A stretch of DNA of 64,000 bases from Massilia sp. Its GTDB lineage: Bacteria; Pseudomonadota; Gammaproteobacteria; Burkholderiales; Burkholderiaceae_D. The translations under genes were made by a program, and so were the position numbers. Every line of letters begins with the position of its first letter. Within the stretch, counting starts at the first letter, position 1. The DNA is taken from assembly GCA_045810465.1 (NCBI GenBank), contig JBJMVW010000221.1, forward strand, positions 23,197 to 87,196, in the 5' to 3' direction. Below the pieces are notes generated by a model. It searched no databases. It saw nothing but the letters and a program-made list of their open reading frames with translations, and was not told the DNA's origin. This document shows, piece by piece, positions 10,815 through 56,536 of this stretch.

Positions 10815-10844
10815 TCTCTCCTGTTTGCGCCGCCCGGGCCAGGC

Positions 10845-28864: not shown

Positions 28865-28867
28865 CGC

Positions 28868-30918: not shown

Positions 30919-31031
30919 GCTGTGTCGCGCACGCTTGCGGCACGTGCGGCGCCAGCGGGCTGTGCACTGCTAGAATCGACCTCGGCAGTATCGCGCGTCG
31001 CAGCGTGCACAATGACAACCAGGAGTCGGAT

Positions 31032-32969
31032 ATGTTCCAGATGTTCGGTTTTGGCGGGGCCGGGTGCCCGCGCTGTGGACACAAGGACGCGGACAAGGCG
31101 GGCTATTGCGCCCGTTGCGGGCTGACGCCCGGCGCGCCGCGCAACGCGCCGGTGCTGCGCGAGAACCGCTGGGTCGCCGGTCCCGACGAACTGGCGGTAT
31201 TCTTTGGCGTGCGCGAGCTGGCGGGCGTGTTCGTCAAGACGCTGCGCGTGCCGGCCACCGCGCGCGCCTACATCCTGCAGGGCGACAAGGCGACCGAAGT
31301 GCCCCAGGGCGAATACGAGATCGAAGGCTTTTTCACGCGCCTGAACCACCTGCTGCGCGACCAGCATGCCGAGATCCTGGTCACCCGCACCGGCGCGCTG
31401 CCGGTCGAATTCGCGTTCGACGGCCTGCCGACCGCCGAACACCTCGAGGTAGCGGCGCGCTTCACGGTCAGCGTCAAGATCGAGAACGTGCCCGCGTTCG
31501 CGCGCCACTTCATGACCATGCCGGGCACCATCGGCAGCGCCCAGCTGCGCGAACTGTTGTCCGCGCCGGTACGCCAGTTTGCAGCCGAATTCATCGCCGC
31601 CCGATCGATCCGCGAGATGGCCGACAACCGTGAGCTGCGCGCGCAGCTCGACGAACGGCTGCAGGGCGCCCTCAAGCTGCTGCTGGCCCAGTACGGGCTG
31701 GCGGTGTCGCAGGTCGACACGCTGGCCCTGTGCCACGACAAGTTCGACGCCAACCGGAAGCGCATCGGCAGCCTGTGGCTGGTGGCGGACGAGCGCCACG
31801 TGCAGCTCGAACATGCGAAGCACCTCGACCAGCTGTACAACGACGAGGAATGGCAGCGCATCCGGCGCGAGGAACAGGAGGCGCGCCTGCGGCACAAGCG
31901 CGCCGAGCTGCGCCAGCTTGAAACCATCGAGCGCGCCGAGTTGTCGCTGGCGGGCGCCGAACGCGCGCACGCGATCCGCTCGCGCGAGATCGACCTGTAC
32001 GGGCGCATCGTCGAATCGAAGTCGCGCCGCCAGGCGATCGAACGCGGCGCCGGTGACCTGCTGGCCGACCTCGAACACGACATCGCCAAAAAAGGCGCGC
32101 AGCGCGCCGGCGAGGCCGCCGGGTGGGAGCACGTGCGCGCGCTGGCCGGGATCAGGATGCGCACCGAGCTCGAGGTCGCGCAGCAGGAGGCGCGCCAGTC
32201 GCGCGTGCTGGCGCAGCAGCGCTTTTCGCACCAGCTGCTGCAGCAGCAGATCAGGAACAAGATCGAGCAGGTGCGCCAGATCGAGGACGCGGCGCACCAG
32301 CGTGCCGAGCTCGCGCGGCTGCGCGACAGCGAGCTGGTGGCGGAGCGCCGCGCGCGCGCGCTCGACGACGAGGAACACGCGGCGCGCTACCAGCTGCTGG
32401 TATTGGCCAATGCGGCGCGGCGGCGCGAGGCCGAGCGCGAGCTGGAATGGGAGGAAGAACTGGCCCTGGGCCGCAAGCGCGAGCTGCTGCGCAGCGAATC
32501 CTTGCAGGCGGAGGAAGCGGCGCAACAGCTCGAGGCAATGCGCCGCAGTGGCGCATCGGCCCACGCGCTTGCCCAGCACGAAAAGCTGCTGCGCACGATC
32601 GAGGCCGATCACCTGCACCAGCGCGGCGCGCACCAGTTGCAGCAGGAGCTTGAAGCGCGCCGCGATGCGCACGAGATCGCCCGCAGCGAGTCGTTCGCGG
32701 CGATGGACGATGCCGCAAAGCTGGCGCTGGCGCCGGCCTCGAACGCCGCGGTGCTGGGCGACTACCTGAAGACGCGGGTGCACGCCGCCATGGACCCCGG
32801 CCAGCTCGCGGCGCTGGCCGGGGTGGTCGCGGCAACCAACAGCGTGGCGCCGCTCGACGCCGCGCGCATGGCGCAGGAACGCGCCGACCAGGAACGCGCG
32901 CAGCGCGACGCCGAGGTGGAAAACGAACGCCGCCACCAGCTTGACCTGCTCGCGCTCCGGAAGCCCTGA
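31032..32969 (+). CDS. Zinc-ribbon + SPFH (band-7) + long coiled-coil protein (flotillin/YqiK-like)
   Basis: RBS AGGAG. CPRCGH...CARCG zinc ribbon; SPFH-like core (...SAQLRELLSAPVRQFAAEFIAARSIREMADNRELRAQLDERLQGALKLLLAQYGLAVSQVDTLAL); about 350 aa of E/R/A/Q-rich coiled coil. Confidence 0.65.
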   Translation: MFQMFGFGGAGCPRCGHKDADKAGYCARCGLTPGAPRNAPVLRENRWVAGPDELAVFFGVRELAGVFVKTLRVPATARAYILQGDKATEVPQGEYEIEGFFTRLNHLLRDQHAEILVTRTGALPVEFAFDGLPTAEHLEVAARFTVSVKIENVPAFARHFMTMPGTIGSAQLRELLSAPVRQFAAEFIAARSIREMADNRELRAQLDERLQGALKLLLAQYGLAVSQVDTLALCHDKFDANRKRIGSLWLVADERHVQLEHAKHLDQLYNDEEWQRIRREEQEARLRHKRAELRQLETIERAELSLAGAERAHAIRSREIDLYGRIVESKSRRQAIERGAGDLLADLEHDIAKKGAQRAGEAAGWEHVRALAGIRMRTELEVAQQEARQSRVLAQQRFSHQLLQQQIRNKIEQVRQIEDAAHQRAELARLRDSELVAERRARALDDEEHAARYQLLVLANAARRREAERELEWEEELALGRKRELLRSESLQAEEAAQQLEAMRRSGASAHALAQHEKLLRTIEADHLHQRGAHQLQQELEARRDAHEIARSESFAAMDDAAKLALAPASNAAVLGDYLKTRVHAAMDPGQLAALAGVVAATNSVAPLDAARMAQERADQERAQRDAEVENERRHQLDLLALRKP

Positions 32970-32976
32970 TCCGGTC

Positions 32977-35121
32977 ATGCAAACGGCCATCGACAAGATC
33001 CGCGAATTGCGCGCGCTGCACGAGGACGGCCTGTTGAGCCGCCACGAGTTCGACCTGCGCAAGGACGCGATCCTCGATGCCGCCTGCGCCACGCCGGTGG
33101 AGCTGCCGCCGGCGCATGAAGCGGCCGCCGGGCGCCCCGGCACCGAGATCGGCCTGATGGCTGGCCAGGAGCTTGGGCCGCCCGCGCGCCGCTATCGCCT
33201 CGAGCGCCTGATTGCGTGCGGCAGCGTGGCCCAGGTGTGGCAGGCCACCGACCTCGCGACCCAGGCCGAGCTGGGCCACAGCGCGCAGGTGGCGCTGAAG
33301 ATCCTGGCCCCGCAACTGACCCGGAACGCGAACTACGCGCGCCTGCTGGTCGAGGAAGCGGCTCGCGCGCGGCGGCTCGCGCACGAACACATCGTGCGGG
33401 TGTACGACTGGGCGCGGGACCCTGCCACCGCGAGCTACTTCATCATCATGGAATGGCTGGAGGGCGCCGACCTCGACACCCTGCTGGCGCGCGATGGCCC
33501 GCCCGGCGTGGCGCGCGCGCTGGAACTGCTCGCGCCGGTCGCCGCGGCGCTCGACTATGCGTGGGACAAGCACCGGCTGGTCCACCGCGACATCAAACCG
33601 GCCAATGTGTTCGTGACCAAAAAGGGCGAAGTCAAGCTGCTCGATTTCGGCATCGCGGCGCGTGCACGCGCGACGGCCGGCGGGTCGGTGCTGGAAGCGC
33701 CGGCCAGCTCGGGGACCGCGGGCTACCGCGCGCCGGAGGCCGGTGTGCCGGGGCGGCGCCCGGAGCCAACGCTCGATGTCTACGCGGTCGCGGTGATGTT
33801 TTACCAGATGGTGAGCACAGGCCTGCCGTTCGGGCCTGCGCGCCAGGCTGGGGATACCCCGGCCAGGCCCGACTGCCTTGGCGAGCATCAGTGGCGCACG
33901 CTGCAGGCCGGTTTTGCGCCGGATCCCGCGGCGCGCCCGGCAACCGTGGGCGAACTGCTGGCGCGCCTGCGCGACAGCGCCAGCAAAGTAGTGGCGCAGC
34001 CAGCAATCGAAGCACCGAAGGCCGCGCCCGCCAAGGCTGAACCCCAGGGGACGCAGGTGCTATTGGCGCGCCAGCGACGCGAGCGCGAGAAGCAGGAGCG
34101 CGCAGCCGCCGAATCGGCTCGCCTCAAACGCAAGGAAGCGCTGCGCCAGCAGCTGCTCGCGCGGCGCGCCGAGGACGCCGAAAAAGCGAGGCTGTCCAAA
34201 GAGGAGGCGCGGCGCAAGGCACTGCAGGCGCGTGCGGCCGGCGCGTACCTGGTGCAGCAACAGCGCGAGCGCATGCTACCCGCTGGCCGCGACGAAGCCG
34301 GTTCGCAACCCGTCCTGCGCGATCGCTTCATCGACGGTGGCGGCGCGGGTCCTGCACTGGTGCCGCTCCCCGCCGGACGATTTCAAATGGGCTCACCCGA
34401 GCATGAGCACGACATCGCGCTGCAGGCCGGCGCGCGCAAGCACTGGCTGGCGCGCGAGCTGCCGCGGCATTGGGTCGACATCGGGCGCGCTTTTGCGCTG
34501 GGCCGCTATCCGGTCACCGTCGGGGAGTGGCGCGAGTTCGCGGCCGCCACCGGTTGGCATGGGAAGGGCGCGGTTGACTGGCAGTGCCCCGGCTTTGCGC
34601 AGGCCGACGCGCACCCGGTGGTCGGCATCACATGGCACGACGCGCAGCAGTACCTGCGCTGGCTGTCGGCGCACACCGGCCAGGCCTACCGCCTGCCGAG
34701 CGAAGCGGAGTGGGAATACGCCTGCCGCGCCGGCACCAAAACCGCCTTCAGCTGCGGCGACACCATCAGCACCGAGCTCGCCAATTACGACGGCACCTTT
34801 AGCTACAACGCCGGGCCGCGCGGCGTGTTCCGCCAAGGGACGACAGCGGTGGGCAGTTTTGCGCCCAATCCGTGGGGCCTGTTCGACATGCACGGCAACG
34901 TGTGGGAATGGGTGCAGGACACGGTCCATGACAACTACGACGGCGCCCCGCTCGACGGCAGCGCGTGGGAGGAGGGCGGCGACCAGGCCCGCCGCATCCT
35001 GCGCGGCGGCTCCTGGCTGTACCACCCGCGCTACCTGCGCTCGGCGCTGCGCAACGGGTTCTCGGCCGCCCTGTGCAATGACATCGTCGGCTTCCGGGTG
35101 GCGAGGGACCTGCCGCGATAG
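32977..35121 (+). CDS. SHOCT domain / Ser-Thr protein kinase / FGE-sulfatase (SUMF1-like) domain fusion
   Basis: N-terminal IDKIRELRALHEDGLLSRHEFDLRKDAIL (SHOCT). Kinase motifs HRDIKPANVFV, DFGIA, GTAGYRAPE. C-terminal RLPSEAEWEYACRAGTKT...GNVWEWVQD...RGGSW (FGE-sulfatase). Confidence 0.8.
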   Translation: MQTAIDKIRELRALHEDGLLSRHEFDLRKDAILDAACATPVELPPAHEAAAGRPGTEIGLMAGQELGPPARRYRLERLIACGSVAQVWQATDLATQAELGHSAQVALKILAPQLTRNANYARLLVEEAARARRLAHEHIVRVYDWARDPATASYFIIMEWLEGADLDTLLARDGPPGVARALELLAPVAAALDYAWDKHRLVHRDIKPANVFVTKKGEVKLLDFGIAARARATAGGSVLEAPASSGTAGYRAPEAGVPGRRPEPTLDVYAVAVMFYQMVSTGLPFGPARQAGDTPARPDCLGEHQWRTLQAGFAPDPAARPATVGELLARLRDSASKVVAQPAIEAPKAAPAKAEPQGTQVLLARQRREREKQERAAAESARLKRKEALRQQLLARRAEDAEKARLSKEEARRKALQARAAGAYLVQQQRERMLPAGRDEAGSQPVLRDRFIDGGGAGPALVPLPAGRFQMGSPEHEHDIALQAGARKHWLARELPRHWVDIGRAFALGRYPVTVGEWREFAAATGWHGKGAVDWQCPGFAQADAHPVVGITWHDAQQYLRWLSAHTGQAYRLPSEAEWEYACRAGTKTAFSCGDTISTELANYDGTFSYNAGPRGVFRQGTTAVGSFAPNPWGLFDMHGNVWEWVQDTVHDNYDGAPLDGSAWEEGGDQARRILRGGSWLYHPRYLRSALRNGFSAALCNDIVGFRVARDLPR

Positions 35122-37520: not shown

Positions 37521-38984
37521 TCAGCCGGCCGCCCGGCGTTCGACCGGGCCTGCGCGCCGGCGGTCGCCATCGCCTGCGCGCTCGGCAAACGCTTCCGGAT
37601 ACGGTCCGCCGGCAAAGCTTAGCGGGCCCGGCAGGCCGCACAGCCGGTCGAGCGGCAAGCCCGGCGCCAGCGCGGTTTCGTGGCCGGTGGCAGGGTCGAG
37701 GTGCCAGAAGCCGCCGTCGCGGTGGAACAGGAACGGCAGCAGCCGCGCCTGCGGCATTGCCTCGAGCCCGGCTTCGCCCGGATGCCGCTCCGGATCCAGC
37801 AGGCAATAGCATTCGGCGCCGGCCCCGCCGTCGGCGCGATGCAGGATCACGCCGTTGGGCAGCAGCGCCGTGACCGTCAGCACCACCACGCCCCGGATAC
37901 TGGCTGTCAGCTCGATGCGCATGCCGAGCCGGAGCGGCACCGGCACATGCTTGCCGGGCCAGGCTCCGTCGACCAGCAAGCCGTAGCGCGACACATCCTC
38001 GACCTGGTAGCCGTCGCGGCCGCGCCGGATGACCGCGTGGCGTCCCGACAGCCTGCGCGTCAGGCCAGACCGGTCCGCGCGCTCGTCGCTGAAGTGGCAC
38101 AGCAACAGGTCGGCCTCAGGCTCCTCCTGGTAACGGCCCAGCACCACCTCGTCCATTGCAAACAGGCGCACGTGGCCGGGCATTCCCGGCGCCGCATTGA
38201 CCAGGCAGGCCGCGCGGGCCGGGCAGGGATGCGGGCCGGCGTGGGCTGGCGTGTCGATTTCGATCAGGTCCTCGTCCCACGCGATCGTCGCGAGGCCGAC
38301 GTCGACCTTGCCCGGCTCCGCATCGAGATTGAGCTGCGCGATCGAGGCGTCGCGCGCGCTGACTTCGATGTCGAGCCGGCCGCTGGCCTGCGCGTTCACG
38401 CGCGCGATCGAGGCGTCGTCCGCGATGACGCGCACGTTCTTGTGGGTCGCGAGGAAGGCCTGGTGGATGTCGGCCAGCGTCGCGTCGGGGCGCGGCACAT
38501 TGACCACCAGCGTGCAGACCCAGCTGCGGGCCGAGCCAGGGATATGCTCGTGCCGGCTGTGCAGTTCGAGTTCGATGCGGTGCTGGCCGTGCTCGACCCC
38601 CCGCGAGGAAAACTCGATGAACACGGGGCGCCAATCGCCGCGCAGGGTGCGCGTGAACGTGTGGCGCTCGCCACCGTGCAGCACCAGTGCCGACTGCGCC
38701 AGCATCGCCAGCTGCGGCGCGGCGTCCATCGGCATGCCGCGCAGTTCGAGCTTGAGGGCCTGCCGGCCGCCGGCGGCGCGCGGGTCGAAACCGCTCACGT
38801 GCAGGTGCGGGCGCGGCAGCGGCGGCCGCGGCAGGATCGGATCAGGAGCAGCAGGGGCGTTGGGGCTGGCGGCAGGTGCAGGCTGCGGCGCTTGCCGATG
38901 GCCGTGCTGGCACGCCGCCTCGCCTGGCATCACCCAGACGGTGCAATGCGGATGCTCGGGATTGCGGCACTTGTTCATCGGCAA
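37521..38984 (-). CDS. FHA-domain protein with N-terminal Cys/His-rich (zinc-ribbon-like) segment
   Basis: FHA signature ...RRLSGRHAVIRRGRDGYQVEDVSRYGLLVDGA... N-terminus CRNPEHPHCTVWVMPGEAACQHGH. Confidence 0.65.
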   Translation of the reverse strand: MPMNKCRNPEHPHCTVWVMPGEAACQHGHRQAPQPAPAASPNAPAAPDPILPRPPLPRPHLHVSGFDPRAAGGRQALKLELRGMPMDAAPQLAMLAQSALVLHGGERHTFTRTLRGDWRPVFIEFSSRGVEHGQHRIELELHSRHEHIPGSARSWVCTLVVNVPRPDATLADIHQAFLATHKNVRVIADDASIARVNAQASGRLDIEVSARDASIAQLNLDAEPGKVDVGLATIAWDEDLIEIDTPAHAGPHPCPARAACLVNAAPGMPGHVRLFAMDEVVLGRYQEEPEADLLLCHFSDERADRSGLTRRLSGRHAVIRRGRDGYQVEDVSRYGLLVDGAWPGKHVPVPLRLGMRIELTASIRGVVVLTVTALLPNGVILHRADGGAGAECYCLLDPERHPGEAGLEAMPQARLLPFLFHRDGGFWHLDPATGHETALAPGLPLDRLCGLPGPLSFAGGPYPEAFAERAGDGDRRRAGPVERRAAG

Positions 38985-40477: not shown

Positions 40478-41053
40478 ATGCTGATCCGTCCAATCGAGCA
40501 AACCGACATCGCGGCGGTGGCGCGCCTGCTGCACGCCCTCGCGCGCGAGTTCATCGTCCACGAAGCGAGCGTGGAGGAGGCGTGCACCTTCCTGCGTGAA
40601 AACGACGAGGACAGCCTGCGCGGTTTCATCGAGCGCGGCTACGCCTACCACGTGGCGCTGGCCGGCGGCGAGATCGCCGGCTTCGTCGCGGTGCGCGAGC
40701 GCAGCCACCTGTACCACCTGTTCGTCGACAAACGCTGGCAGCGCCAGGGCCTGGCGCGGCGCCTGTGGGACGTGGCGCGCAGCGCGGCGCTCGCCGCCGG
40801 CAACGGCGGCACATTCACGGTCAACTCATCGAACCTCGCGGTGCCGGTGTACGAGTCGTTCGGATTCGTGCGCACCGCGCCCATGCAGTGCGTGCGCGGT
40901 GTGCGTTTCAACCCGATGCTGCTGACGCTACCCGTGTCGCGTGCGCTCGGGAGCGCACACTACGGCATCGTCAGCGCCGCGCCTCATTTTGCTTTCGCAG
41001 CCACAGGCTGCTTACCCAGCCGCGCTGTGCGCGCCCGTCTACCCGCACGCTGA
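40478..41053 (+). CDS. GNAT-family N-acetyltransferase
   Basis: MLIRPIEQTDIAAV...VDKRWQRQGLARRLW (Q/RxxGxG/A acetyl-CoA motif). Confidence 0.6.
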   Translation: MLIRPIEQTDIAAVARLLHALAREFIVHEASVEEACTFLRENDEDSLRGFIERGYAYHVALAGGEIAGFVAVRERSHLYHLFVDKRWQRQGLARRLWDVARSAALAAGNGGTFTVNSSNLAVPVYESFGFVRTAPMQCVRGVRFNPMLLTLPVSRALGSAHYGIVSAAPHFAFAATGCLPSRAVRARLPAR

Positions 41054-41411
41054 CCTCCCACCAGTCGCCGCTGCGCACACCGGTTGGCGTGACGGCGGCG
41101 CCTGCCGGGACCACGGCGACGCGGCGCGCCGATACGCCGGTGCCGGTGCGCAGGTTCAGGTCGTCGTAGGCGCGGTAGCTGGAACCCAACGCGCCCGCCG
41201 CGTTCGCCAATTGCGCGGCGTGCGCGGGCGGCGCGTCGAACAACCGAAGCAGCCCGCTCCCGATCCCGACGGTGCCCACCACCAGCACCGCGAGCGCGCG
41301 CGCGTTCGGCCGGCGCCACCAGCCGTGCGGCGTCAGCCAGGCGGCCAGGATCAGGGTCGCCACCAGCGCCGCGCAAAACACGGCCACGGTTAATACGGTC
41401 GCGGCGCCCAT
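40971..41411 (-). CDS. Membrane-anchored SH3b-domain protein (146 aa)
   Basis: Only the C-terminal part of long ORF 40971..41903(-) is credible. ATG at 41409-41411 is 7 nt downstream of the FHA gene stop. TM helix plus YDDLNLRTGTGVSARRVAVVPAGAAVTPTGVRSGDWWEVSVRVDGRAQRGWVSSLWL (SH3_3-like). Confidence 0.55.
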   Translation of the reverse strand: MGAATVLTVAVFCAALVATLILAAWLTPHGWWRRPNARALAVLVVGTVGIGSGLLRLFDAPPAHAAQLANAAGALGSSYRAYDDLNLRTGTGVSARRVAVVPAGAAVTPTGVRSGDWWEVSVRVDGRAQRGWVSSLWLRKQNEARR

Positions 41412-41418
41412 CGCTGGC

Positions 41419-42969
41419 CTACGCGTCGAAGCGCAGCACGTAATGGCCCGCCACCAGGTGGTGCCCCGGCGGCAGCAGGTATGGGCGCTCGGCCGATGCG
41501 TCCTCGATCGCCGCCACGTAGCGCAACTCGTCGTCGAGGTGGTACAGCGCCTGGGTCGGCGACAGGCGCGCGATCCGGTAGCCATCCGGCGCGGCTTCGA
41601 AGCTGAAGGCGTTGCGCGACAGGCCAAGCCGGTCCGCGCTGGCGGTATCGACGCCATCGGCACGGCGCAGGAAGCGCGGCGAATCGAGCACCCGCAGCGC
41701 GGCCAGCATCGGCGCGCTGCGCCCGAACACGAACGGCATGCCGGTGGCGACCGGCAGGCCGGGCGCCTGCGGCAGGCACAGGATCGCGCGGTAGCGCTCG
41801 GCCATCGCGGGAGCGACCGCCAGCAGGCGCACCGCGGTCGCGTCGAGCGGCGTGAAACTGGACGGCACGTCGATCCGCTGGCGTCCGGCGGCTGTGATCG
41901 CATGCACGTCGTCCGCGTCGTCGACCGCGAAGCTGATCACCGCATCCTTTCCATGCGGCGTAGGCGCCAGCGCGCGATTGAGGCCGATTTCGAGGGCCAG
42001 CGCGCCGGTCTCGCGGTAGCGCGACAGGCGCGGCAACGCGAGCGCGGCCAGGCTCACGCGCTGGCGCGCGACCGGCGCATAGGTGGCGTCGCTTTCCGGC
42101 GCCGGCGCCGCCTGGGGCGGCCGCTGGGCGACGGGGACGGCGGTCAGCTCGGGGTCGGCATCGAGCTGGCCGCGCGCCTTCCACACGGCCGGCGCCGCAA
42201 TCGGCCGCGCCGTCGGCATCGGCGCGGCCGGGACGCCGGTCCGCGTCACTTTCATGAACAGGCGCGGCGCACCGCCCGCAGCGTCGGCGCCCGCGCGCCT
42301 GGCGCGGATCGTGTAGTAGCCGCTGGCGGCGTCGAAGCTGCAATCGAAAGCGTCCTTCGGGCGCACCTGGACTTCGATCGGCGCGTCCGGCCCATCGTTC
42401 ACCAGCAGCACTGCGCCCTGGTCGCCGAACGGCCAGCCCGGCACCGCGTGGGTGGCGCTGGCTTCGTCCTGCCCGACCAGGGTCAGGCGCTGGTTCGGGT
42501 AGATCGGGCACACCGGGTGCCAGATCGCGCTGTCGCGCGAGACGCTCACCGTGTACAGTATTTTCTCGCCCGGGGCCGGCAGGTACACCGCGTGGCCGAA
42601 CTTGACTTCGACCTGGCCCGGTTCGAGCGTCCCGGCGCCGACCACGTCGTAGCGCACTTCGTCGCTGCCGAGCAGGTCGCCGAAGTCTTTCTGGTGCAGT
42701 GCGGCCAGCGTTTGCGCGAGGTCGCGCACGCGGGCGCCGCGCGTGAGGTGGCGGTCGTCGTCGACGTCGTCCTGCGGCAGCACCAGTGTCACGTGCGAGA
42801 AGCAGCGCGTGGCCATCCGTCCGCGCTGCTCGCGCGGCGAGCGCTCGAGCAGGTCGCGCAGCAGGGGGCGGCGCGCGAACAGCGCCAGCCCCGGCGCCTG
42901 CCAGAGCGCTTCGGCATTGAACACATCGTGAACCTTGCCAAGCACTTCATGTTGGACATAGACCGGCAT
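41419..42969 (-). CDS. FhaA-like protein: N-terminal uncharacterised domain + C-terminal FHA domain
   Basis: C-terminal ...GLSRNAFSFEAAPDGYRIARLSPTQALYHLDDELRYVAAIE...GHHLVAGHYVLRF (FHA-like). 23-nt overlap with the upstream FHA-SEDS gene. Confidence 0.6.
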   Translation of the reverse strand: MPVYVQHEVLGKVHDVFNAEALWQAPGLALFARRPLLRDLLERSPREQRGRMATRCFSHVTLVLPQDDVDDDRHLTRGARVRDLAQTLAALHQKDFGDLLGSDEVRYDVVGAGTLEPGQVEVKFGHAVYLPAPGEKILYTVSVSRDSAIWHPVCPIYPNQRLTLVGQDEASATHAVPGWPFGDQGAVLLVNDGPDAPIEVQVRPKDAFDCSFDAASGYYTIRARRAGADAAGGAPRLFMKVTRTGVPAAPMPTARPIAAPAVWKARGQLDADPELTAVPVAQRPPQAAPAPESDATYAPVARQRVSLAALALPRLSRYRETGALALEIGLNRALAPTPHGKDAVISFAVDDADDVHAITAAGRQRIDVPSSFTPLDATAVRLLAVAPAMAERYRAILCLPQAPGLPVATGMPFVFGRSAPMLAALRVLDSPRFLRRADGVDTASADRLGLSRNAFSFEAAPDGYRIARLSPTQALYHLDDELRYVAAIEDASAERPYLLPPGHHLVAGHYVLRFDA

Positions 42970-45289
42970 GATGACTCTCCTCTAAAGATTGGGCGCTCGC
43001 CGCATCGAACGCTAGCAGGGGGCAGATGAAAAACAGCAGGTGCGAGCCGCCGGCCGACAAAAAGCTCATCGGCTGGCCCATGATCGGGAAGATGGCGAGG
43101 TTGGTCCCCCACGACAGCAGGAAGTGGCCGAGCACGAAGCCGGCCCCGCCGCACAGCGCAAAGCAGCGAAAGCGCGCCAGCCACGCGTGGCGGAAGTCGC
43201 GCGCCTGCACGCTCGCGGCCCAAGCGCGGGCGGCGGTCTGCAGCAGGCCGACCAGGAACAGCGCCTGCAGCGCCCACAGTGCCAGTGCGGCGGCCAGGCC
43301 GTGCCGGTTCACGAAGAACGAGGGCGCGAAGTCGTCCTGCACCGCCGGGATGCGGGTGGCGGGGCCGGCCGGCTGTCCGAGTGTGCTCACGCCGAGCAGG
43401 CTGTCGGTCCCGAGCCAGCCGCCCTCGGCGACCGCACTGGCGCCCAGCAGCAGCTGCTGGCCGGTGTGCGGGTGCGTGGCCGGATCGAGCCAGACCAGGA
43501 AACGGTCGGCGTAAAAATCAAACTGCGCGAGCTGCGCCGGGCCGGCGCTGCGCAGGGCGCCGATGCCGAGCACCGTGGCGCAGGCCAGCGCCGCCAGCGC
43601 CAGCACCGCCGACGGCCTGCGCGCGGCCAGCGCCCAGGCCAGCGCCATCGTGCCGCCCCATACCAGCAGCAGGATCAGCGGCGAATAATCGTCCACCTGG
43701 ACCAGCGCCACGCCGAGCAGGGTCACGAACAGCAGCGCGGGCGCGAATAGCCGCAGCCAGCGCAGCGCGGTCGCGCCGGTGTGGGCGCCAAGGCCGATCG
43801 CCATGCAGTGCGCGGTAAGGGCGGCCAGCGCGAGCTTGGCGAATTCGACCGGCTGCAGGTCGAACACGCCGGTTTCGTCACCGTGGATCACCTGCAGCGC
43901 CAGCGCTGCAAGGGCGCCGGCGGCGAGCAGCAGCAACCAGCGTTCGGCCCGGGCTTGCGGCATCGGGATGCGCGGCAGCGCTGTGCAAAGCCAGGTGCCC
44001 GCCCCAAGGCCGAGCGCCAGCAGTGCCGCGCTCTTGTGGAAGTGGCGCGGCCACGACGAGTCCATCACGCCCAGCCCCAGTTCGAGCTGGGCCAGCAGGC
44101 CGGCCGCGAGCAGCAGCACGCCAGCCATGAAGGCCAGGTCGAGGCGCCTCGGCGCCAGCGTCGCGTACCACAGGGCCGCCCACGCCAGCATCAGCGACAG
44201 CCCGATGGCGGGCGGCGTTCCGCCACGCTGGAGCACGAGCGAGCCGAGGCCGGCCACGACCAGCAGGGCGCCGGCGGCCGACCGGATTGCCGCGCCGGTG
44301 CGCTGGGTGCGCGTGCTCCGGCGCCAGGCGGCACAGGCGCCAGCCAGCACGGCGCAGCCGAGCGCCAGCGCGCACAGCCACCCAACTGGCAGCGGCGCCG
44401 CCCACAGGCTGCGCCGCTGCCATTGCCACGTTACCTGCGGTGGCAACTGGACCTGGCGCTCGGCATACAGCCCCACATGGCTGACGGGCCGCAGGCGCAG
44501 CGTGGCCCCATCGGCCGCTGCCAGCAGCCTGGTGTGGCCAGCCACGATCGCGCCGGCGCCGCCGAGGGCTTCCTCCAGGCGCGCCAGCTCGGTCGCGCTG
44601 TCGCCGTCGATGATGACCAGCGGCGTACGGCCCGCGCCCGCCGGTGCGTTCAGCAGCAGCGTCGGGCCGACGCTTGCGATGGACGCACTGCCAGGCGCCA
44701 CGCCCGCGATGCCGATCCGGTTGCCGCAGTGGAGATTGCCGCCGAAGGTGATCGGCCCGGCCAGCGAGAGCGCATGCGGCATGCAGCGGTTCCAGGCCGC
44801 GGTGGCGCGCGCGCCGATGCCGGCGCCGGGGCAGGGCGGTTGGGCAGCGCCGTCGCGCTCGAGGGTCGCGCCGTCGTAGTGCCAGCGGTGGGAGGCGCCG
44901 GTGAAGCGGGCGTCGCGTGCGCTGGCCGCGGCGACATCGAACGCTGCGACGCCAAGCTGGAAGCGCTGTCCCGCGTGCAGCGGCGTGCTGCCGGTCGCGC
45001 GGTCCTTGCCGTCGCGCTGGACCAGCAATTGGCGGCCGCCGGCGTTGTGCAGCCACCAGGCGCCCGCGCCATCGCGCCGCAGCGCCAGGTGGGACTGGTC
45101 GGCCTGCGGCGCCGCCAGCTCGTGGCGGCCAAGCGTGAGCGACTCCCCCGGCAGCAGCGTGACCTCGATGGATTCGGGCGCCCAGGCGGCCGGTGCGCGC
45201 AGCAGGCATAGCAACTGCAGCGCGCACAGGAGGGCGAGCGCGCAAGCGGCCGGCGACAGCTCCGCGGCGGACCTGGCGTACCTGTTCAT
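42947..45289 (-). CDS. FHA-domain / SEDS-family (RodA/FtsW-like) peptidoglycan glycosyltransferase fusion
   Basis: N-terminal LTLGRHELAAP...SHLALRRDG...GQRFQLG (FHA-like). About 10 TM helices. C-terminal SEDS signature ...NLAIFPIMGQPMSFLSAGGSHLLFF. 4-nt overlap with the kinase gene. Confidence 0.75.
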   Translation of the reverse strand: MNRYARSAAELSPAACALALLCALQLLCLLRAPAAWAPESIEVTLLPGESLTLGRHELAAPQADQSHLALRRDGAGAWWLHNAGGRQLLVQRDGKDRATGSTPLHAGQRFQLGVAAFDVAAASARDARFTGASHRWHYDGATLERDGAAQPPCPGAGIGARATAAWNRCMPHALSLAGPITFGGNLHCGNRIGIAGVAPGSASIASVGPTLLLNAPAGAGRTPLVIIDGDSATELARLEEALGGAGAIVAGHTRLLAAADGATLRLRPVSHVGLYAERQVQLPPQVTWQWQRRSLWAAPLPVGWLCALALGCAVLAGACAAWRRSTRTQRTGAAIRSAAGALLVVAGLGSLVLQRGGTPPAIGLSLMLAWAALWYATLAPRRLDLAFMAGVLLLAAGLLAQLELGLGVMDSSWPRHFHKSAALLALGLGAGTWLCTALPRIPMPQARAERWLLLLAAGALAALALQVIHGDETGVFDLQPVEFAKLALAALTAHCMAIGLGAHTGATALRWLRLFAPALLFVTLLGVALVQVDDYSPLILLLVWGGTMALAWALAARRPSAVLALAALACATVLGIGALRSAGPAQLAQFDFYADRFLVWLDPATHPHTGQQLLLGASAVAEGGWLGTDSLLGVSTLGQPAGPATRIPAVQDDFAPSFFVNRHGLAAALALWALQALFLVGLLQTAARAWAASVQARDFRHAWLARFRCFALCGGAGFVLGHFLLSWGTNLAIFPIMGQPMSFLSAGGSHLLFFICPLLAFDAASAQSLEESHHAGLCPT

Positions 45290-46275
45290 GCCGCGCTCCG
45301 CCAGCTGGCTGGCGCCTGCACGGCTTGCCGTACCCGCGCGATCATCCGGCTGATCTCGAGTGCATGGCGCGGCCGCTGTTCGCGCCGCGCGGCGAGCAAC
45401 GAGCGCAGCATGTCCAGCGCCGCGCCGCCACGGTGCGCCGAGCGCGCTGCCACGCCCGCGCGCTGCGCGAACAGCACTTCCTCGCCGGCGTCGAGCACGG
45501 GCGGCAGCGCGCCGCCGTGCTGCGCCAGCAGCCGGTTGGCCCCGCCCGGGCCGTGTGCCCGGAAGGCTTCACCGCAGGCGCTGCAAAAGCGCAGCGGCTG
45601 GCCACCGGTGACGAGGTAATAGAACAGCGCCCCGAGCGCGAAATAATCGGTGCGCGCGTCGGTGTGGTAACCCTGCGCGCGATCGCCGAAGAACTGTTCG
45701 GGCGCCTGCCAGTTCGCGGTGCCGGTGTACGAATGCGGATGCGGCTCGGACAGCAGCCGGTTGGTGCCGAAGTCGGCCAGCTTCAGGCCGCGCTGGCCGT
45801 CGAGCAGCAGGTTGCCGGGCTTGAGGTCGAGGTAGCGCCAGCCGTACTGGTGGACCTTGGCCAGCGCCTGGTTGACCTGCGCGATCCAGTCGAGCGCCAG
45901 CATGAACGGGATCGGACGGCCCGCTGCGCGCCGGGCGGCGACGTGCCGGCCAAGGTCGCCGTCGAGCAGTTCGAGCGCCATCGCCGGCAGCCCTTCATGG
46001 ACGCCGCTGTCGAGCAGGCGCACGATGTGGCGCTGGTCCCACGGCTGCAGCGCGCCGAGGAAGCCGATTTCATTGGTGGCGCAGGCGACCCAGCGATCGC
46101 GCTGGCCCGCATCGGCGCCCTCCATCTGCTCGCGGTTGACCAGCTTGATCGCGACCTGGCCGATGCGCGCCGGGCCGTCGGCGCGCCACAGCACGCCGTA
46201 CGCCGATCCCGCCAGCCGGTCGCGCAAGCGGTACTGGCCCGCGGCCAGCGTGACGATGGACCCTGCCTGCTGCAT
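45286..46275 (-). CDS. Ser/Thr protein kinase (Hanks-type, 329 aa, no obvious TM)
   Basis: Gly-rich loop region/VAIK (QVAIKLV), catalytic loop YLDLKPGNLLLD, DFG (LADFGTN), APE-like (WQAPEQ). Confidence 0.8.
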   Translation of the reverse strand: MQQAGSIVTLAAGQYRLRDRLAGSAYGVLWRADGPARIGQVAIKLVNREQMEGADAGQRDRWVACATNEIGFLGALQPWDQRHIVRLLDSGVHEGLPAMALELLDGDLGRHVAARRAAGRPIPFMLALDWIAQVNQALAKVHQYGWRYLDLKPGNLLLDGQRGLKLADFGTNRLLSEPHPHSYTGTANWQAPEQFFGDRAQGYHTDARTDYFALGALFYYLVTGGQPLRFCSACGEAFRAHGPGGANRLLAQHGGALPPVLDAGEEVLFAQRAGVAARSAHRGGAALDMLRSLLAARREQRPRHALEISRMIARVRQAVQAPASWRSAA

Positions 46276-46348: not shown

Positions 46349-46374
46349 AAAAAAAGCCGCGCACCCGGCGCGGC
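46349..46374 (-). terminator. Rho-independent terminator for the glycine-zipper gene
   Basis: On the minus strand: GCCGCGCC-GGGT-GCGCGGC followed by TTTTTTT, 24 nt after the stop at 46398. Confidence 0.65.
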
Positions 46375-46397: not shown

Positions 46398-46886
46398 TCA
46401 GCGGCCGTGGCCCCAGCGGCCGCCATCGTGGCCGCGGTCGCCGCGGTCCCAACCACGGTCATGGCCGCGATCCCAGCCACGGTCATGGCCACGGTCGTAG
46501 TAGCCGCGGTCGTAGTAGCCACGGCCCGCGTTCACGTACACCACTTCCGGCCGGCTGTAGTAGCGCGGCTGTTCGTAGTACACCGGGCGCGACTCGACGT
46601 AGACCGGCGCCGGCTGGTAGTAGCTCGCGCTGCTATAGCCGCGGTTGTCGTAGTAGTAACCCGAGTTGTAGCGGCGGTCGTCGTTGGTCGACAGCGAGTT
46701 GCCCACTGCCGCGCCCAGCACGCCGCCGACGATTGCGCCGTCGCGTCCGCCTGCACCGTGCCCGATGGCGGCGCCGAGCAGCGCGCCGACAGCCGTGTTC
46801 GCCCCGCGATCGTCAGCCATTGCCGTGGTCGACGAGACGGCAGCAGCGGCCAGGATCACCGCACCAAAGCATTTCTTGTTCAACAT
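46398..46886 (-). CDS. Glycine-zipper (2TM/17-kDa-antigen-like) lipoprotein with Tyr/Arg/Asp-rich repetitive tail
   Basis: Signal peptide MLNKKCFGAVILAAAAV. GALLGAAIGHGAGGRDGAIVGGVLGAAVG glycine zipper. Tail YYDRGYYDRGHDRGWDRGHDRGWDRG. Confidence 0.6.
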   Translation of the reverse strand: MLNKKCFGAVILAAAAVSSTTAMADDRGANTAVGALLGAAIGHGAGGRDGAIVGGVLGAAVGNSLSTNDDRRYNSGYYYDNRGYSSASYYQPAPVYVESRPVYYEQPRYYSRPEVVYVNAGRGYYDRGYYDRGHDRGWDRGHDRGWDRGDRGHDGGRWGHGR

Positions 46887-47107
46887 GGCTTTTCCTTTTG
46901 CCCTCAACGAGGATCGGAATGATCACTGGAACGCCGGGCACGGTTGAACTATAGTCCCACAGGCCGGGGCCGCCATCTGTTCATACACAATATTACAAAT
47001 GGATATTTACAGGTAACATTCGCCAGGGCCATTCATTTTCCCCGGCCCCCTTGCACTCGGGTGATACTGCCCCATCTAGCCGGCATCACCGATTTCCACC
47101 TGCCGTC

Positions 47108-48244
47108 ATGCCCTCACGCCGTTCCATCCCGACCGTCCCCATCCTGCTGGCCTTGCTACATGCCTATATTGGCGTCCGGCTGCTGCCAGAGATGCAATTG
47201 GGGGGCCGCGGGATCGTGACCGGCGCGTTGCTGCTCCTGCTGTCGGCGGTGCTGGTGGCGATCGGCCTGCGCGCGCCCTCGCTCAAGCGCAGCCGCTGGT
47301 CCGGGCCGATTGCATGGGCGGGCTTGACGGCAATGGGCTTCTTTTCGTCCTTGCTGGTGCTGACTTTCCTGCGCGACATTTTGCTGCTGTTCCTTGCGCT
47401 GATCGGGGCCGGCGGCCCCTTGTTCACCCGCGATAGTGCGGTCGCGGTGCCGCTCATTGCGCTGGCGGTCACGCTGGTCGGCTTCGTCAACGCGCGGCGG
47501 GTGGCGCGCGTGGTCAACGTGGAGGTGCCGATCGACAACCTGCCACCTGGGCTGAACGGCTATTCGATCGCCCAGATTTCGGACATCCACGTCGGCCCGA
47601 CCATCAAGCGGCCGTACCTGAACGCGATCGTCAACCGGGTCAATGCGCTCAAGCCCGACGCAATCGCGGTCACCGGCGACCTGGTCGACGGCAGCGTGCA
47701 GCGCCTGGCCTTGCATACCGAACCGCTGCAGCGCCTGGCCGCGCCCCACGGCGCGTTTTTCGTGACCGGCAACCATGAATATTATTCGGGGGCCGAACCG
47801 TGGATCGCGGAGATGCGCCGGCTGGGCCTGACCGTCTTGTTGAACGAACACGTGGTGCGTGAGCGCAACGGCGCCGCCCTGATGATCGCCGGCGTGACCG
47901 ACTACAACGCGCACCACTTCCACGAATCGCACCGCAGCGACCCGCATGTTGCCGGCGCCGGCGCGCCAGACCATGTGCAGGTGCGCATCCTGCTTGCCCA
48001 CCAGCCGCGCAGCGCGGCCGCGGCGGCCGATGCCGGCTTCCACCTGCAACTGTCGGGGCACACGCACGGCGGCCAGTTCTTCCCGTGGAATTTGTTCGTG
48101 CCGCTGCAGCAGCCCTTCGTCGCCGGCCTGAACCGGGTGCGCGACCTGTGGGTCTACACCAGCCGCGGCACCGGCTACTGGGGCCCGCCCAAGCGCTTCG
48201 GTGCGCCCTCGGAAATCACCCTGATCCGGCTGGTTCCCGCCTGA
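47108..48244 (+). CDS. Membrane-anchored metallophosphoesterase (calcineurin-like, YkuE/YaeI-type)
   Basis: ISDIHVGPT...VTGDLVD...GNHEYY...LSGHTHGGQ phosphoesterase motifs after 3-4 TM helices. Confidence 0.75.
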   Translation: MPSRRSIPTVPILLALLHAYIGVRLLPEMQLGGRGIVTGALLLLLSAVLVAIGLRAPSLKRSRWSGPIAWAGLTAMGFFSSLLVLTFLRDILLLFLALIGAGGPLFTRDSAVAVPLIALAVTLVGFVNARRVARVVNVEVPIDNLPPGLNGYSIAQISDIHVGPTIKRPYLNAIVNRVNALKPDAIAVTGDLVDGSVQRLALHTEPLQRLAAPHGAFFVTGNHEYYSGAEPWIAEMRRLGLTVLLNEHVVRERNGAALMIAGVTDYNAHHFHESHRSDPHVAGAGAPDHVQVRILLAHQPRSAAAAADAGFHLQLSGHTHGGQFFPWNLFVPLQQPFVAGLNRVRDLWVYTSRGTGYWGPPKRFGAPSEITLIRLVPA

Positions 48245-48338: not shown

Positions 48339-49784
48339 ATGAACCGCCTTTCCCGCCGCCTTCCTGTCCTGACCGTCCTGGCCGCCTCCGTGCTGGCTGG
48401 TGCCGCCTTCGCCGCCAGCCCCGGCAACGATCCGGGCGCGCTCGCCAAAATCCGCGACACCGCGATGCAGAGCGACTACGCCTACCAGCGCCTGGAGGAC
48501 CTGACCGACCTGATCGGTCCGCGCCTGTCGGGCTCGGCGGGCGCGGCGGCGGCGGTGACCCAGGTCGCCGGGGAACTGCGCAAACTGGGCGCGAAGGTGA
48601 CGCTGCAGCCGGTCAAGGTGCCGCACTGGGTGCGCGGCGCCGAGTCGGCCGAACTGGTGGAGTACCAGGGCCGCCCGGCCGGGCTGTCGCAAAAGGTGGT
48701 GCTGGCCGCGCTCGGCGGATCCGGCGCGACCCCGGCCGGCGGCATCACGGCGCCGGTGCTGGTGCTGCACAGTTTTGACGAACTGAAGGCGAAGGCAAGC
48801 GAGGTCAAGGGCAAGATCGTGCTGTTCGACGTGCCGTTCGACCAGAACATGGCGGACCGCGGCCTGGCCGGCACGGCCTACGGCCAGGCGGTGGCCTACC
48901 GCGGCGCCGGTCCGCGCATGGCGGCCGAGATGGGCGCCGTGGCCGCGCTGGTGCGCGCCGTCGGCGGCGCCGCGTATCGCATCCCGCACACCGGCGCCAC
49001 CGGTTTCCAGGACGGCCGCATCCCGGCGGCCGCAGTCACGATCGAAGACGCGATGCTGATGAGCCGCCTGGCCAGGCGCGGCCCGCTGGCGATGCACCTG
49101 ACCCTGACCCCGCAAGCGCTGCCGGACGTCGACACCTACAACGTGATCGCCGACTGGCCGGGCAGCGACAAGCCGGACGAGGTGGTGATCGTCTCGGGCC
49201 ACCTCGATTCGTGGGACCTGGCGACCGGCGCCAACGACGACGCCTCGGGCGTAGCGAGCGCGATGGGCGTGATCGACACGCTGCGCAAGCTGGACTTGCG
49301 TGCGCGCCGCACGATCCGCGTGATCGCCTGGGCCAACGAGGAAAACGGCGGGCGCGGCGGCAATGGCTACCACGTCGCGCAACAGGCCAACGTCGAAAAG
49401 CACATCGGCGCTTACGAAGACGACAGTGGTTCGGGCCGCCCGTTCGGCATTCGCGCCAGCGTGGGCCCCGAGGCGGGCTAGCTGTTCGCTCCGCTCAAGT
49501 CCGCGCTGCAGGCGATCGGCGCCGGCGCGTTCCAGCGCGAGGATGTGCTGGGCACCGGCGACCTGCACGCGCTGGAAGCCGCGGGCGTGCCGAGCTTCGA
49601 GCCGCTGATCGACTCGTCGGACTACTTCAACTACCACCACACGCCGGCCGACACCTTCGACAAGGTCAATCCGGACAACCTGCGCCGCCACGTCGCCGTG
49701 ATGGCGACGACCGCCTGGTTCCTGGCCAACACCGACCAGCCGGTCGGCCGCGCCGCAGTCCCGGCCGGCGCGACGCGCCACTGA
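48339..49784 (+). pseudogene. M28-family aminopeptidase interrupted by an in-frame TAG (49479-49481)
   Basis: ORFs 48339..49481 and 49545..49784 are in the same frame. Translation continues through the TAG (...VGPEAG*LFAPLKSALQAIGAGAF...YHHTPADTFDKVN) with M28 motifs on both sides. Confidence 0.6.
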
Positions 49785-56159: not shown

Positions 56160-56536
56160 ACGAGGAAATAGATTAGCGCACTGATATTCGGATACGGCGG
56201 CGGGCGCCTGAAAACAATACGCCGTTTTATTGTCGATATTCTCACGGATAAACACAAATTCATAATATGACGGGAAAAGCAACGAAAATAATTTTATGCA
56301 CGGATGGCACCCCCGGCGTGAACTTTTTAATGTTTTAATGCTAATAGATTTTGATTTTCCACCAAAGGAAATCAGCTGTGTTTAGTTAATCGCCGCGCAT
56401 GGCACTTGAATAAACGCGCACCGCGACACGCATTATTAATTCCGACCCGCCCGCGCGCGACGAAAGAACCGGTTTGTGGCCGCAATGACTGGCTGGAAGT
56501 GGGGGCAATTGCTGATCGTCAGCCATATTTGCCCAA
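56160..56536. promoter_or_regulatory. AT-rich (~40% GC) intergenic region: divergent promoter region and compositional boundary
   Basis: 377 bp with a sharp GC drop relative to the ~68% flanks, between divergently transcribed operons. Confidence 0.4.

Follow-up and report, generated by a model that had tools for sequence, protein, structure and literature searches.

The window analysed here is a stretch of 64,000 nucleotides of DNA from Massilia, a genus of soil bacteria. On its minus strand four genes follow one another: a Hanks-type Ser/Thr kinase (Kin329, 329 aa; 45286..46275), a SEDS protein (SEDS780, 780 aa; 42947..45289), a cytoplasmic FHA protein (P3, 516 aa; 41419..42969) and an SH3b protein (146 aa, start MGAATV...; 40971..41411). 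A preliminary description of the locus had claimed a translationally coupled operon of kinase, SEDS, FHA protein and SH3b genes with overlapping stop and start codons throughout. The coupled operon is borne out, and overlaps occur at two of the three junctions: kinase and SEDS780 share an ATGA, the end of SEDS780 and the start of P3 have 23 nt in common, with GAGGAG as ribosome-binding site, but P3 and the SH3b gene are separated by a 7-nt gap. The first three genes likewise lie where stated, the fourth is the 146-aa gene and not the 310-aa ORF, and all motifs quoted earlier are found in the sequence. GC3 is 0.86-0.90 across all four genes. P3 matches a protein of an NCBI Massilia MAG at 100% identity, by which the host is taken to be a Massilia sp. 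MAG. An intrinsic terminator (46360..46372, minus strand; terminator scan and sequence) closes the upstream Gly-zipper gene, so that the operon begins at the kinase. Taken as a whole, the earlier observation is partly confirmed and its interpretation partly supported.

The assignment of Kin329 as a Hanks-type kinase is confirmed by a Pfam Pkinase match of 4.6e-25 (89 bits versus a cut-off of 31.7) and by the catalytic residues, as K44, E69, D150 (codon 45826-45828), K152, N155, DFG168-170, T186 and APE191-193 do not vary among 76 orthologues. It is a non-RD kinase with YLD where HRD is expected, and it is soluble, having neither a TM segment nor a PASTA domain. Neither the loops of the SEDS protein nor the tail of the PBP showed a conserved Thr as a kinase target. 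The absence of a PP2C phosphatase noted previously holds among the scanned ORFs of the window. A divergent metallophosphoesterase (47051-48244), a multi-TM protein, was considered as the missing phosphatase and, though conceivable in that role, not adopted: its motifs DIHVG/GDLVDG/GNHE/GHTH do not read as the PPP-type GDxHG/GDxVDRG, and the Gly-zipper gene and the terminator stand between it and the operon.

SEDS780 matches Pfam FTSW_RODA_SPOVE (PF01098) at 1.2e-16 over residues 473-755 (61.2 bits versus a cut-off of 26.4). This agrees with its earlier naming as a SEDS protein, but the ten TM segments assigned to it fall short of the 14 hydropathy peaks observed, of which 10 lie at positions 400-755. 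In the predicted topology an anchor at the N-terminus is followed by a periplasmic domain, then by three extra TM helices (residues 297-380; 44150..44401, minus strand; hydropathy peaks at 311, 344 and 370) and a 10-TM SEDS glycosyltransferase core (residues 383-765; 42995..44143, minus strand), the latter placed by alignment to PaFtsW and by motif positions. The core carries QPVEFAK (479), VQDDF (650) and FLSAGGS (743), and QPVEFAK, RFxVWLDP, VQDDF and SAGGS are near-invariant across the family; when the family profile is aligned to P. aeruginosa FtsW (8bh1/8p1u), D653 falls on PaFtsW D275. A search of PDB sequences with SEDS780 alone returned no match, and with the family profile weak FtsW matches, which were the sole PDB matches found. 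The protein was rightly called non-canonical, reaching 55.5 bits against the NCBIfam ftsW equivalog (cut-off 337.5) and 54 bits against rodA (cut-off 336.7). Judged by its sequence, SEDS780 is a divergent SEDS glycosyltransferase that is probably active.

The N-terminal region of SEDS780 begins with a signal-anchor or TM helix, TM0a (residues 15-35; 45185..45247, minus strand; hydropathy peak 2.16), which is a helix at 13-30 in the AF2 model and is preceded by a mean of 2.4 Lys and Arg residues across homologues. Residues 36-125 (44915..45184, minus strand) adopt an FHA fold, and residues 126-296 (44402..44914, minus strand) form a second beta-rich subdomain in the AF2 model, for which no structural match was found. 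Neither Pfam at E<=1 nor NCBIfam gave an FHA match in SEDS780, and a Foldseek comparison of the N-terminal model with the PDB returned nothing significant. Ten TM segments lie between the FHA fold and ECL4, a periplasmic loop, which places both on the same side, and three lie between it and SEDS TM1 as aligned to TM1/ECL1 of PaFtsW. The distribution of Lys and Arg over the loops fits the positive-inside rule with the FHA fold outside. Cys153 and Cys188 are invariant in 121 homologues and also in distant relatives at 28-34% identity. From TM parity, positive-inside counts and the invariant Cys pair together, residues 36-296 are predicted to lie in the periplasm, and hence not in the cytoplasm with the kinase.

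The phosphothreonine pocket of this fold is degenerate. The position of Arg55 is occupied by R in 62 and Q in 43 of the 121 homologues and by S, A, D or E in the remainder, the position of the Ser ligand holds D, A or G, and conservation in the pocket is confined to the structural H67 and N82. Elsewhere in the fold R72 is invariant and R71 and D73 are, like H67 and N82, near-invariant; at position 98 most homologues have an Arg where the protein of the window has an Ala. As the fold is predicted to be extracytoplasmic, it probably does not read the marks set by the kinase.

P3 begins with an alpha/beta region (residues 1-245), followed by a linker rich in Pro and Ala (246-302), a beta domain (303-404) and, at the C-terminus, an FHA domain (405-516; 41422..41757, minus strand). 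The AF2 model has a pLDDT of 72.5, whereby the AF2 models were built on shallow alignments of 36-41 sequences. P3 matches no Pfam or NCBIfam family and gives no FHA (PF00498) match at E<=1, and phmmer and hmmsearch against PDB sequences returned nothing for it; a search of 1.84 billion representatives yielded only 189 related clusters at E<=1e-3. The HMM check for FHA thus failed in both proteins for which an FHA domain had been claimed, which formally refutes the claim, and for P3 it is rescued by fold and motif evidence. The C-terminus forms an 11-stranded beta-sandwich of the FHA fold. Over 36 relatives (18-49% identity) G416 and R417 (41719-41724) are near-invariant and S451 (S451-R452, 41614-41619) is invariant. 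The family consensus is SRxHF, Oxalobacteraceae carry SRNAF with the His replaced by Ala, and the equivalent of the usual Asn was not identified. Two of the 36 relatives do match the FHA HMM, at best with a sub-threshold E of 0.027, and the family consensus sequence matches Yop-YscD_cpl at 0.055, again below threshold. An insertion of about 30 aa between the GR and SR motifs probably accounts for the missed HMM match of P3.

The likening of P3 to FhaA holds loosely. A C-terminal FHA domain with candidate phosphothreonine ligands is present, but homology of the N-terminus to FhaA_N (DUF3662, PF12401) was rejected, since that model was hit in one of the 36 relatives at E 0.06 and not by the consensus sequence, and hhalign of the P3 N-terminus against the 2LC0 sequence gave a probability of 0.2%. 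The conserved candidate ligands of the C-terminal domain make an analogy to the actinobacterial control of SEDS proteins by kinase and FHA reasonable.

The product of the operon's last gene has two TM helices followed by an SH3_3 domain at the C-terminus (PF08239, 1.8e-7; 31.6 bits versus a cut-off of 27) at residues 84-138 (nt 40998-41162), predicted to be periplasmic, which verifies its description as a TM and SH3b protein. Downstream lies FHA487 (37521..38984, minus strand), with a zinc-ribbon-like N-terminus and a canonical FHA domain (Pfam FHA, 5.3e-5). In 71 of 80 loci it lies downstream of the four genes; it is the next detected gene after the SH3b gene in Duganella, and is a probable accessory member of the module. 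P3 and FHA487 were also considered as paralogues, which was rejected as BLASTP shows no significant similarity.

On the plus strand, PBP1071 (23539..26754) encodes a bitopic protein of 1071 aa with a C-terminal penicillin-binding transpeptidase domain (Pfam Transpeptidase, 1.8e-18). Across 119 homologues S741xxK, S826xN and K1004TG hardly vary at all, Thr1005 being present in 118 of them. Its operon is closed by KinFGE (32941..35121, plus strand; Pfam), which joins SHOCT, a Hanks kinase domain (Pkinase, 1.5e-31), a coiled coil and an FGE-sulfatase domain (4.4e-57); its start codon is uncertain and it is syntenic in 44 of 80 loci. This transpeptidase (23539-26754), the likely cognate one, the second FHA protein and the second kinase had been missed by the preliminary description. 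SPFH and SHOCT as well as two kinases are encoded near the operon, and HD and RVT_3 genes border the PBP1071 operon. PBP1071 and SEDS780 belong in the window to separate, convergent operons 16 kb apart, the PBP1071 operon being a conserved neighbour. Orthologues of PBP1071 also occur beside long SEDS and P3 genes, immediately upstream of the long SEDS gene in one metagenome contig and about 5 kb from it in a Desulfobulbia MAG. We regard PBP1071 as a candidate for the cognate bPBP partner of SEDS780.

The operon block is kept in Massilia, Telluria, Duganella and Rugamonas and is therefore not a chance arrangement. The synteny of kinase, SEDS, P3 and SH3b genes extends over 75-80 of 80 Oxalobacteraceae loci, with the SH3b gene found in 78. 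Among eight distant P3 contexts a long SEDS gene stands immediately upstream of P3 in five; a kinase occurs in five, an FGE-sulfatase domain in three, a long transpeptidase in two and a PP2C in one, the locus L090, where PP2C and an FHA-kinase lie within the same gene string. The long SEDS recurs with the wall-related SLT, LysM and SH3b genes, and further partners of the distant relatives are Peptidase_C14 with FGE-sulfatase, an FtsH-like AAA protease, IS elements and an integrase. Two relatives have kinase, P3 and SH3b genes without SEDS, which indicates that P3 can function without it. In the Desulfobulbia locus no kinase gene lies within 10 kb, and a canonical PBP2-RodA pair stands beside the long SEDS, so that the long SEDS there is an extra one. 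A description of the kinase-SEDS-P3-SH3b module was not found in the literature searched.

On the strength of the genes present, their domain folds, the conserved catalytic and binding residues, predicted topology and conserved neighbourhoods, all computed here, we propose with a probability of about 0.55 that the operon supplies one half, polymerase and regulation, of an accessory peptidoglycan synthase restricted in lineage, in which the parts have the following roles. SEDS780 would act as the glycosyltransferase and the atypical class-B-like transpeptidase PBP1071 as its likely partner. P3, co-translated with SEDS780, might serve as a cytoplasmic adaptor whose FHA domain reads phosphothreonine made by Kin329, be it on the kinase itself, the SEDS protein, the PBP tail or another partner, and could thereby recruit, localise or gate the synthase. 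The two-TM SH3b protein may tether or sense peptidoglycan from the periplasmic side. The FHA fold of SEDS780 would be periplasmic and no phosphothreonine reader; together with the Cys-containing beta domain it probably binds a periplasmic partner, for which the large non-catalytic part of PBP1071 or the SH3b protein are candidates, or a wall or lipid-linked ligand. We infer in this way enzymatic activity, the pairing of SEDS780 with PBP1071, the phospho-dependent link from kinase to P3, and a physiological role.

The preliminary description had pictured FhaB as fused to RodA and the SEDS protein as wired to an FHA domain. In that picture the N-terminal domain is a cytoplasmic FhaB/FipA-like phosphothreonine reader, through which the kinase gates the polymerase directly. 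We consider this very improbable: the TM counts to ECL4 and to SEDS TM1, the Lys and Arg distribution and the invariant Cys pair all put the domain on the predicted periplasmic side, and the Arg and Ser ligands are not conserved. A different objection to the accessory synthase arises from the divergence of SEDS780, with 61 bits in Pfam, 55 bits where equivalogs require 337 and no PDB match for the single sequence, and from its four extra TMs and large periplasmic domain. Such a protein could, instead of building wall, be a membrane-borne sensor or a scaffold, or it could polymerise, ligate or flip some other lipid-linked glycan, within envelope-stress signalling by kinases, FHA, SPFH and SHOCT proteins; the nearby SPFH, SHOCT and kinase genes and the versions of the module without SEDS would fit. 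We nevertheless judge it unlikely, if worth keeping in mind, because the SEDS catalytic motifs are near-invariant and the protein recurs with a transpeptidase of intact active site and with SLT, LysM and SH3b genes.

A role in conflict, defence or damage response was also weighed, in which kinase, PP2C, FHA and FGE-sulfatase sensors detect an attack on the envelope by phage, T6SS or lysins and trigger remodelling or repair of the wall. The variable, island-like partners in distant relatives and the HD and RVT_3 genes bordering the PBP operon point in this direction, as do matches of both kinase domains to the PADLOC models PD-T4-6 and Mad6. These matches are of a generic kinase-domain kind, however, and the Oxalobacteraceae block shows stable synteny and vertical conservation from genus to genus, unlike typical defence islands, which makes this role decidedly improbable. 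PADLOC gave no match for SEDS, P3, SH3b, FHA487, SPFH or the metallophosphoesterase; of two unknown ORFs one had no match and the other a marginal one to PDC-M03A (E 0.0075).

Beyond the accessory synthase, one may speculate that long SEDS and P3 form the core of an unrecognised, self-contained transmembrane machine that makes or repairs wall under certain conditions, an idea we hold to be doubtful. The periplasmic FHA fold and a disulfide-stabilised beta domain would sense a ligand, perhaps a lipid-linked pyrophosphate, a stem peptide or the state of a partner PBP, and kinase, PP2C and FHA would switch the polymerase on via P3 from within the cell. Were this true, it would be the first case of an FHA fold with a function outside the cytoplasm and, in diderm bacteria, the first of a SEDS protein gated by its own Ser/Thr kinase.

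SEDS-bPBP synthases are core wall-building machines and major antibiotic targets. To our knowledge, work on the control of wall synthesis by kinase and FHA has until now dealt with Actinobacteria and Firmicutes, where the kinases carry PASTA sensors. If the accessory synthase exists as proposed, diderm Proteobacteria and Desulfobacterota possess an additional SEDS-bPBP pair, which comes with a soluble kinase of its own and with a dedicated FHA adaptor of an uncharacterised family without a Pfam model. The module is compact and genetically separable, and thus suited to testing phosphorylation-dependent SEDS control; it is probably non-essential given a canonical pair alongside, as seen in the Desulfobulbia relative only and assumed for Massilia. 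SEDS780 may in addition exemplify an FHA fold employed outside the cytoplasm, and P3, the N-terminal domain of the long SEDS and the long PBP are families open to definition and naming.

In Actinobacteria the corresponding cluster is fhaA-fhaB(fipA)-pstP-rodA-pbpA-pknA-pknB (Rv0014c-Rv0020c in M. tuberculosis). Both systems have a genome-linked SEDS polymerase, a class-B-type transpeptidase, one or more Hanks kinases and FHA proteins, and P3 resembles FhaA in being cytoplasmic and in the order of its parts: a domain at the N-terminus, then a linker of low complexity and last an FHA domain with a GR and, in the family consensus, an SRxH motif. The differences are considerable. FhaA_N is not detected in P3; an equivalent of the TM-FHA protein FhaB is missing, the SEDS-fused FHA fold being degenerate and predicted to be periplasmic; and a PP2C is present in L090 only and not among the scanned ORFs of the window. 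Kin329 is soluble, non-RD and free of PASTA domains, SEDS780 has four extra TMs and a predicted periplasmic domain of 260 aa, and PBP1071 with its 1071 aa lacks the PBP_dimer domain. SEDS and PBP genes stand in separate operons in the window, and the organism itself is a diderm betaproteobacterium.

Some FHA-like domains lack phosphothreonine binding, namely the cytoplasmic domains of YscD/PrgH/MxiG of the T3SS and that of EssC. Those are cytoplasmic, whereas the fold of SEDS780 is predicted to be periplasmic with a conserved Cys pair in the adjoining subdomain, and its context is a SEDS polymerase and no secretion system. Firmicutes have accessory SEDS homologues, for example the PadR-controlled FtsW/RodA homologue of Listeria (cited in PMC11237479). 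The common traits are an extra SEDS paralogue to which an N-terminal module has been added and which has regulation of its own, presumably serving stress conditions; fused domain, regulators (PadR/HAAS versus kinase/FHA) and phylum differ, and the likeness is one of layout.

With the canonical pairs RodA-PBP2, FtsW-PBP3/FtsI and SpoVE-SpoVD, SEDS780 shares the 10-TM core, QPxEFAK, the DxF catalytic loop and SxGGS, and PBP1071 shares the SxxK, SxN and KTG motifs of the partner transpeptidases. It departs from them in scoring far below the FtsW/RodA equivalog cut-offs, in the large N-terminal additions on both proteins, in a position outside the dcw and mrd loci, and in having a kinase and a dedicated cytoplasmic FHA adaptor.

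The four genes under study are closely packed on the minus strand with a GC3 of 0.86-0.90 and encode a soluble Hanks-type kinase (Kin329, 45286-46275), a SEDS glycosyltransferase-like protein (SEDS780, 42947-45289), a 516-residue FHA protein (P3, 41419-42969) and an SH3_3 protein (SH3b, 40971-41411). The stop of Kin329 and the start of SEDS780 overlap in ATGA, and SEDS780 overlaps P3 by 23 nt with a GAGGAG ribosome-binding site ahead of P3. The stop/start overlaps which the preliminary description had claimed throughout the operon are present at these two junctions but not at the third, where 7 nt separate P3 from SH3b. A 310-residue ORF considered as the SH3b gene overlaps P3 and was discarded, the true start being MGAATV. 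As an intrinsic terminator at 46360-46372 closes the upstream Gly-zipper gene, the operon begins at Kin329. This upstream gene (46398-46907, minus strand) encodes a small secreted protein (Gly-zipper_Omp/YMGG) with a repetitive Tyr/Arg/Asp/Gly-rich tail; in Massilia sp. WF1, too, it directly precedes the kinase gene. A protein from an NCBI Massilia sp. MAG matches P3 at 100% identity, which makes the host an oxalobacteraceal betaproteobacterium. The four genes co-occur in 75-80 of 80 loci from Massilia, Telluria, Duganella and Rugamonas, and the P3 patterns were matched in 214 GTDB species genomes.

The kinase, SEDS and SH3b assignments were borne out by Pfam (Pkinase, 4.6e-25; FTSW_RODA_SPOVE, 1.2e-16; SH3_3, 1.8e-7). 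The FHA domains claimed for SEDS780 and P3 were detected neither by Pfam, even at E<=1, nor by NCBIfam, which formally speaks against both. All 76 Kin329 orthologues keep K44, E69, D150, K152, N155, DFG, T186 and APE, and the kinase is non-RD with YLD replacing HRD. SEDS780 retains QPVEFAK, RFxVWLDP, VQDDF and SAGGS, and its D653 aligns to D275 of P. aeruginosa FtsW (PaFtsW), the catalytic Asp. With ~55 bits against cut-offs of ~337 it is far from the NCBIfam FtsW and RodA equivalogs. The AF2 models were built on shallow alignments.

P3 belongs to a small family without a Pfam model, as only 189 clusters came out of 1.84 billion representative proteins searched with a profile. Among 36 relatives (18-49% identity) S451 does not vary and G416 and R417 hardly do; the consensus of the family is GR...SRxHF. 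In hhalign these residues are in register with GR and SRRH of the FhaA FHA domain (pairwise E 0.0011, probability only 8%). An insertion of ~30 residues separates the two motifs in P3 and is probably the reason why the HMMs fail. Judged by its motifs, the P3 FHA domain looks functional. The proposed FhaA architecture fits loosely at best, as the actinobacterial domain FhaA_N was not detectable in the N-terminal part. Another protein, of 487 residues (37521-38984, minus strand), has a canonical FHA domain (Pfam FHA 5.3e-5) and an N-terminus that is rich in Cys and His and resembles a zinc ribbon. It is encoded downstream of the operon in 71 of 80 loci, and in Duganella directly follows SH3b among the genes detected; no similarity to P3 was detectable.

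Instead of the ten transmembrane segments described at first, hydropathy of SEDS780 gives 14 peaks, one N-terminal, three at residues 311, 344 and 370, and ten in the SEDS core, whose TM1 corresponds to helix ~383-405 in the alignment of the SEDS780 family profile to PaFtsW. Counting from residues 36-296, three segments precede the start of TM1, which is cytoplasmic, and ten precede the periplasmic loop ECL4, so that the FHA-fold domain is predicted to be periplasmic by either count. The distribution of Lys and Arg (~20 in predicted inside loops vs ~3 in short predicted outside loops) is consistent with this location, and Cys153 and Cys188, invariant also in relatives at 28-34% identity, would fit a periplasmic disulfide. 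The pThr ligands are not retained: among 121 homologues the GR motif keeps its Arg in 62 and has Gln instead in 43, and the Ser position of the pThr pocket is D, A or G. The model of FhaB fused to RodA, in which the cytoplasmic kinase reads the SEDS-fused FHA domain directly, carries some weight as an alternative, but the predicted periplasmic location and the lost ligands do not support it. The domain consensus weakly matches Pfam Yop-YscD_cpl (E 0.0022). It resembles the FHA-like modules of YscD and PrgH, which are non-phospho-binding, and differs from them in its predicted position outside the membrane.

A conserved six-gene operon on the plus strand (23539-35121), syntenic in Duganella and Massilia, is convergent with the Kin329-SH3b operon. 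It begins with PBP1071, a 1071-residue transpeptidase (23539-26754) in which SxxK and SxN are invariant and KTG is present in 118 of 119 homologues. Behind it are genes for three proteins to which no function is assigned (26910-28295, 28868-29917, 29929-30918), for a coiled-coil protein with zinc-ribbon and SPFH/Band_7 domains (30771-32969) and for a protein that joins SHOCT, Hanks kinase and FGE-sulfatase domains (32941-35121). Overlapping HD-domain and RVT_3/RNase H-like genes (20920-22264, minus strand) adjoin it, also in Duganella. Two Pirin paralogues occur in the window (9942-10844, minus; 36422-37315, plus); the second shares an inserted block, which is placed between the convergent operons and differs from genus to genus, with OsmC and GNAT genes. 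On the other side, a multi-TM calcineurin-like metallophosphoesterase (47051-48244, plus strand) diverges from the Kin329 operon and is present in 60 of 80 loci; its motifs differ from the PPP type, which makes it an improbable candidate for the missing protein phosphatase. The M28 peptidase gene that follows (48339-49784, plus strand) is cut in two by a TAG in frame at 49479-49481. Peptidase_M28 is matched on either side of it and the Massilia sp. WF1 orthologue is a single 485-residue gene; the TAG is a nonsense mutation, pseudogene or MAG assembly error. From 56200 to 62000 the GC falls from ~0.70 to 0.60-0.62; this stretch, which carries Lipase_3, VWA_2 and unknown ORFs and terminates at tRNA-Leu(taa) (61565-61651, minus strand), may be a horizontally acquired island.

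The contexts of distant P3 relatives are the most informative result. A Desulfobulbia MAG clusters an orthologue of the long transpeptidase (43% identity), SLT, LysM, the long SEDS (34% identity over the full length) and P3 (32%), adjoining canonical PBP2-RodA-MltA genes. One metagenome contig has the order kinase, transpeptidase (1142 residues), SEDS (863 residues), P3, and locus L090 has PP2C, kinase+FHA, kinase+FGE-sulfatase, OmpA, a 547-residue protein, SEDS (839 residues), P3; further relatives combine SEDS-P3 with SH3_3 or FGE-sulfatase neighbours. By these shared contexts, long SEDS and P3 form an evolutionary core, with long PBP, Hanks kinases, PP2C, SH3b and FGE-sulfatase domains as recurrent partners. 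A SEDS-less variant (kinase, P3-like, SH3b-like) adjoins an LpxR gene in Massilia sp. W12 (L084 8925-12282) and elsewhere (L086 3834-7160), so that P3 can act with kinase and SH3b where no long SEDS is encoded alongside.

The best reading of the four-gene operon is that it would be part of an accessory synthase of peptidoglycan, composed of SEDS and a class-B penicillin-binding protein, for which PBP1071 is the candidate. P3 as a co-translated FHA adaptor would couple the cytoplasmic face of the synthase to Ser/Thr phosphorylation, for which Kin329 would be the source, while SH3b and the N-terminal domains of SEDS780 would act in the periplasm. Some weight is given to the SEDS-like protein being a sensor and not a polymerase, and likewise to a damage- or conflict-response system. 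For the latter, distant P3 relatives repeatedly adjoin a Peptidase_C14 and FGE-sulfatase protein, lie beside FtsH-like AAA+/M41 proteins (~957-1014 residues, two contexts) or beside the PP2C, kinase-FHA and kinase-FGE-sulfatase string (L088 3567-5849; L089 4488-7361; the metagenome contig of P0435; L090 1-4826), partners typical of signalling or conflict systems. The PADLOC results do not point to any known defence system. No description of the module was found in the literature searched, and its functional roles are those we infer.

Regarding the actinobacterial PknAB/FhaA/RodA/PbpA cluster, the Massilia module is not a member, because it is without detectable FhaA_N, cytoplasmic TM-FHA protein, PASTA kinase and, in agreement with the preliminary description, PP2C in the window. 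The look-alike originally proposed concerns the working of the module, in which its inferred function may be likened to that of the actinobacterial system.
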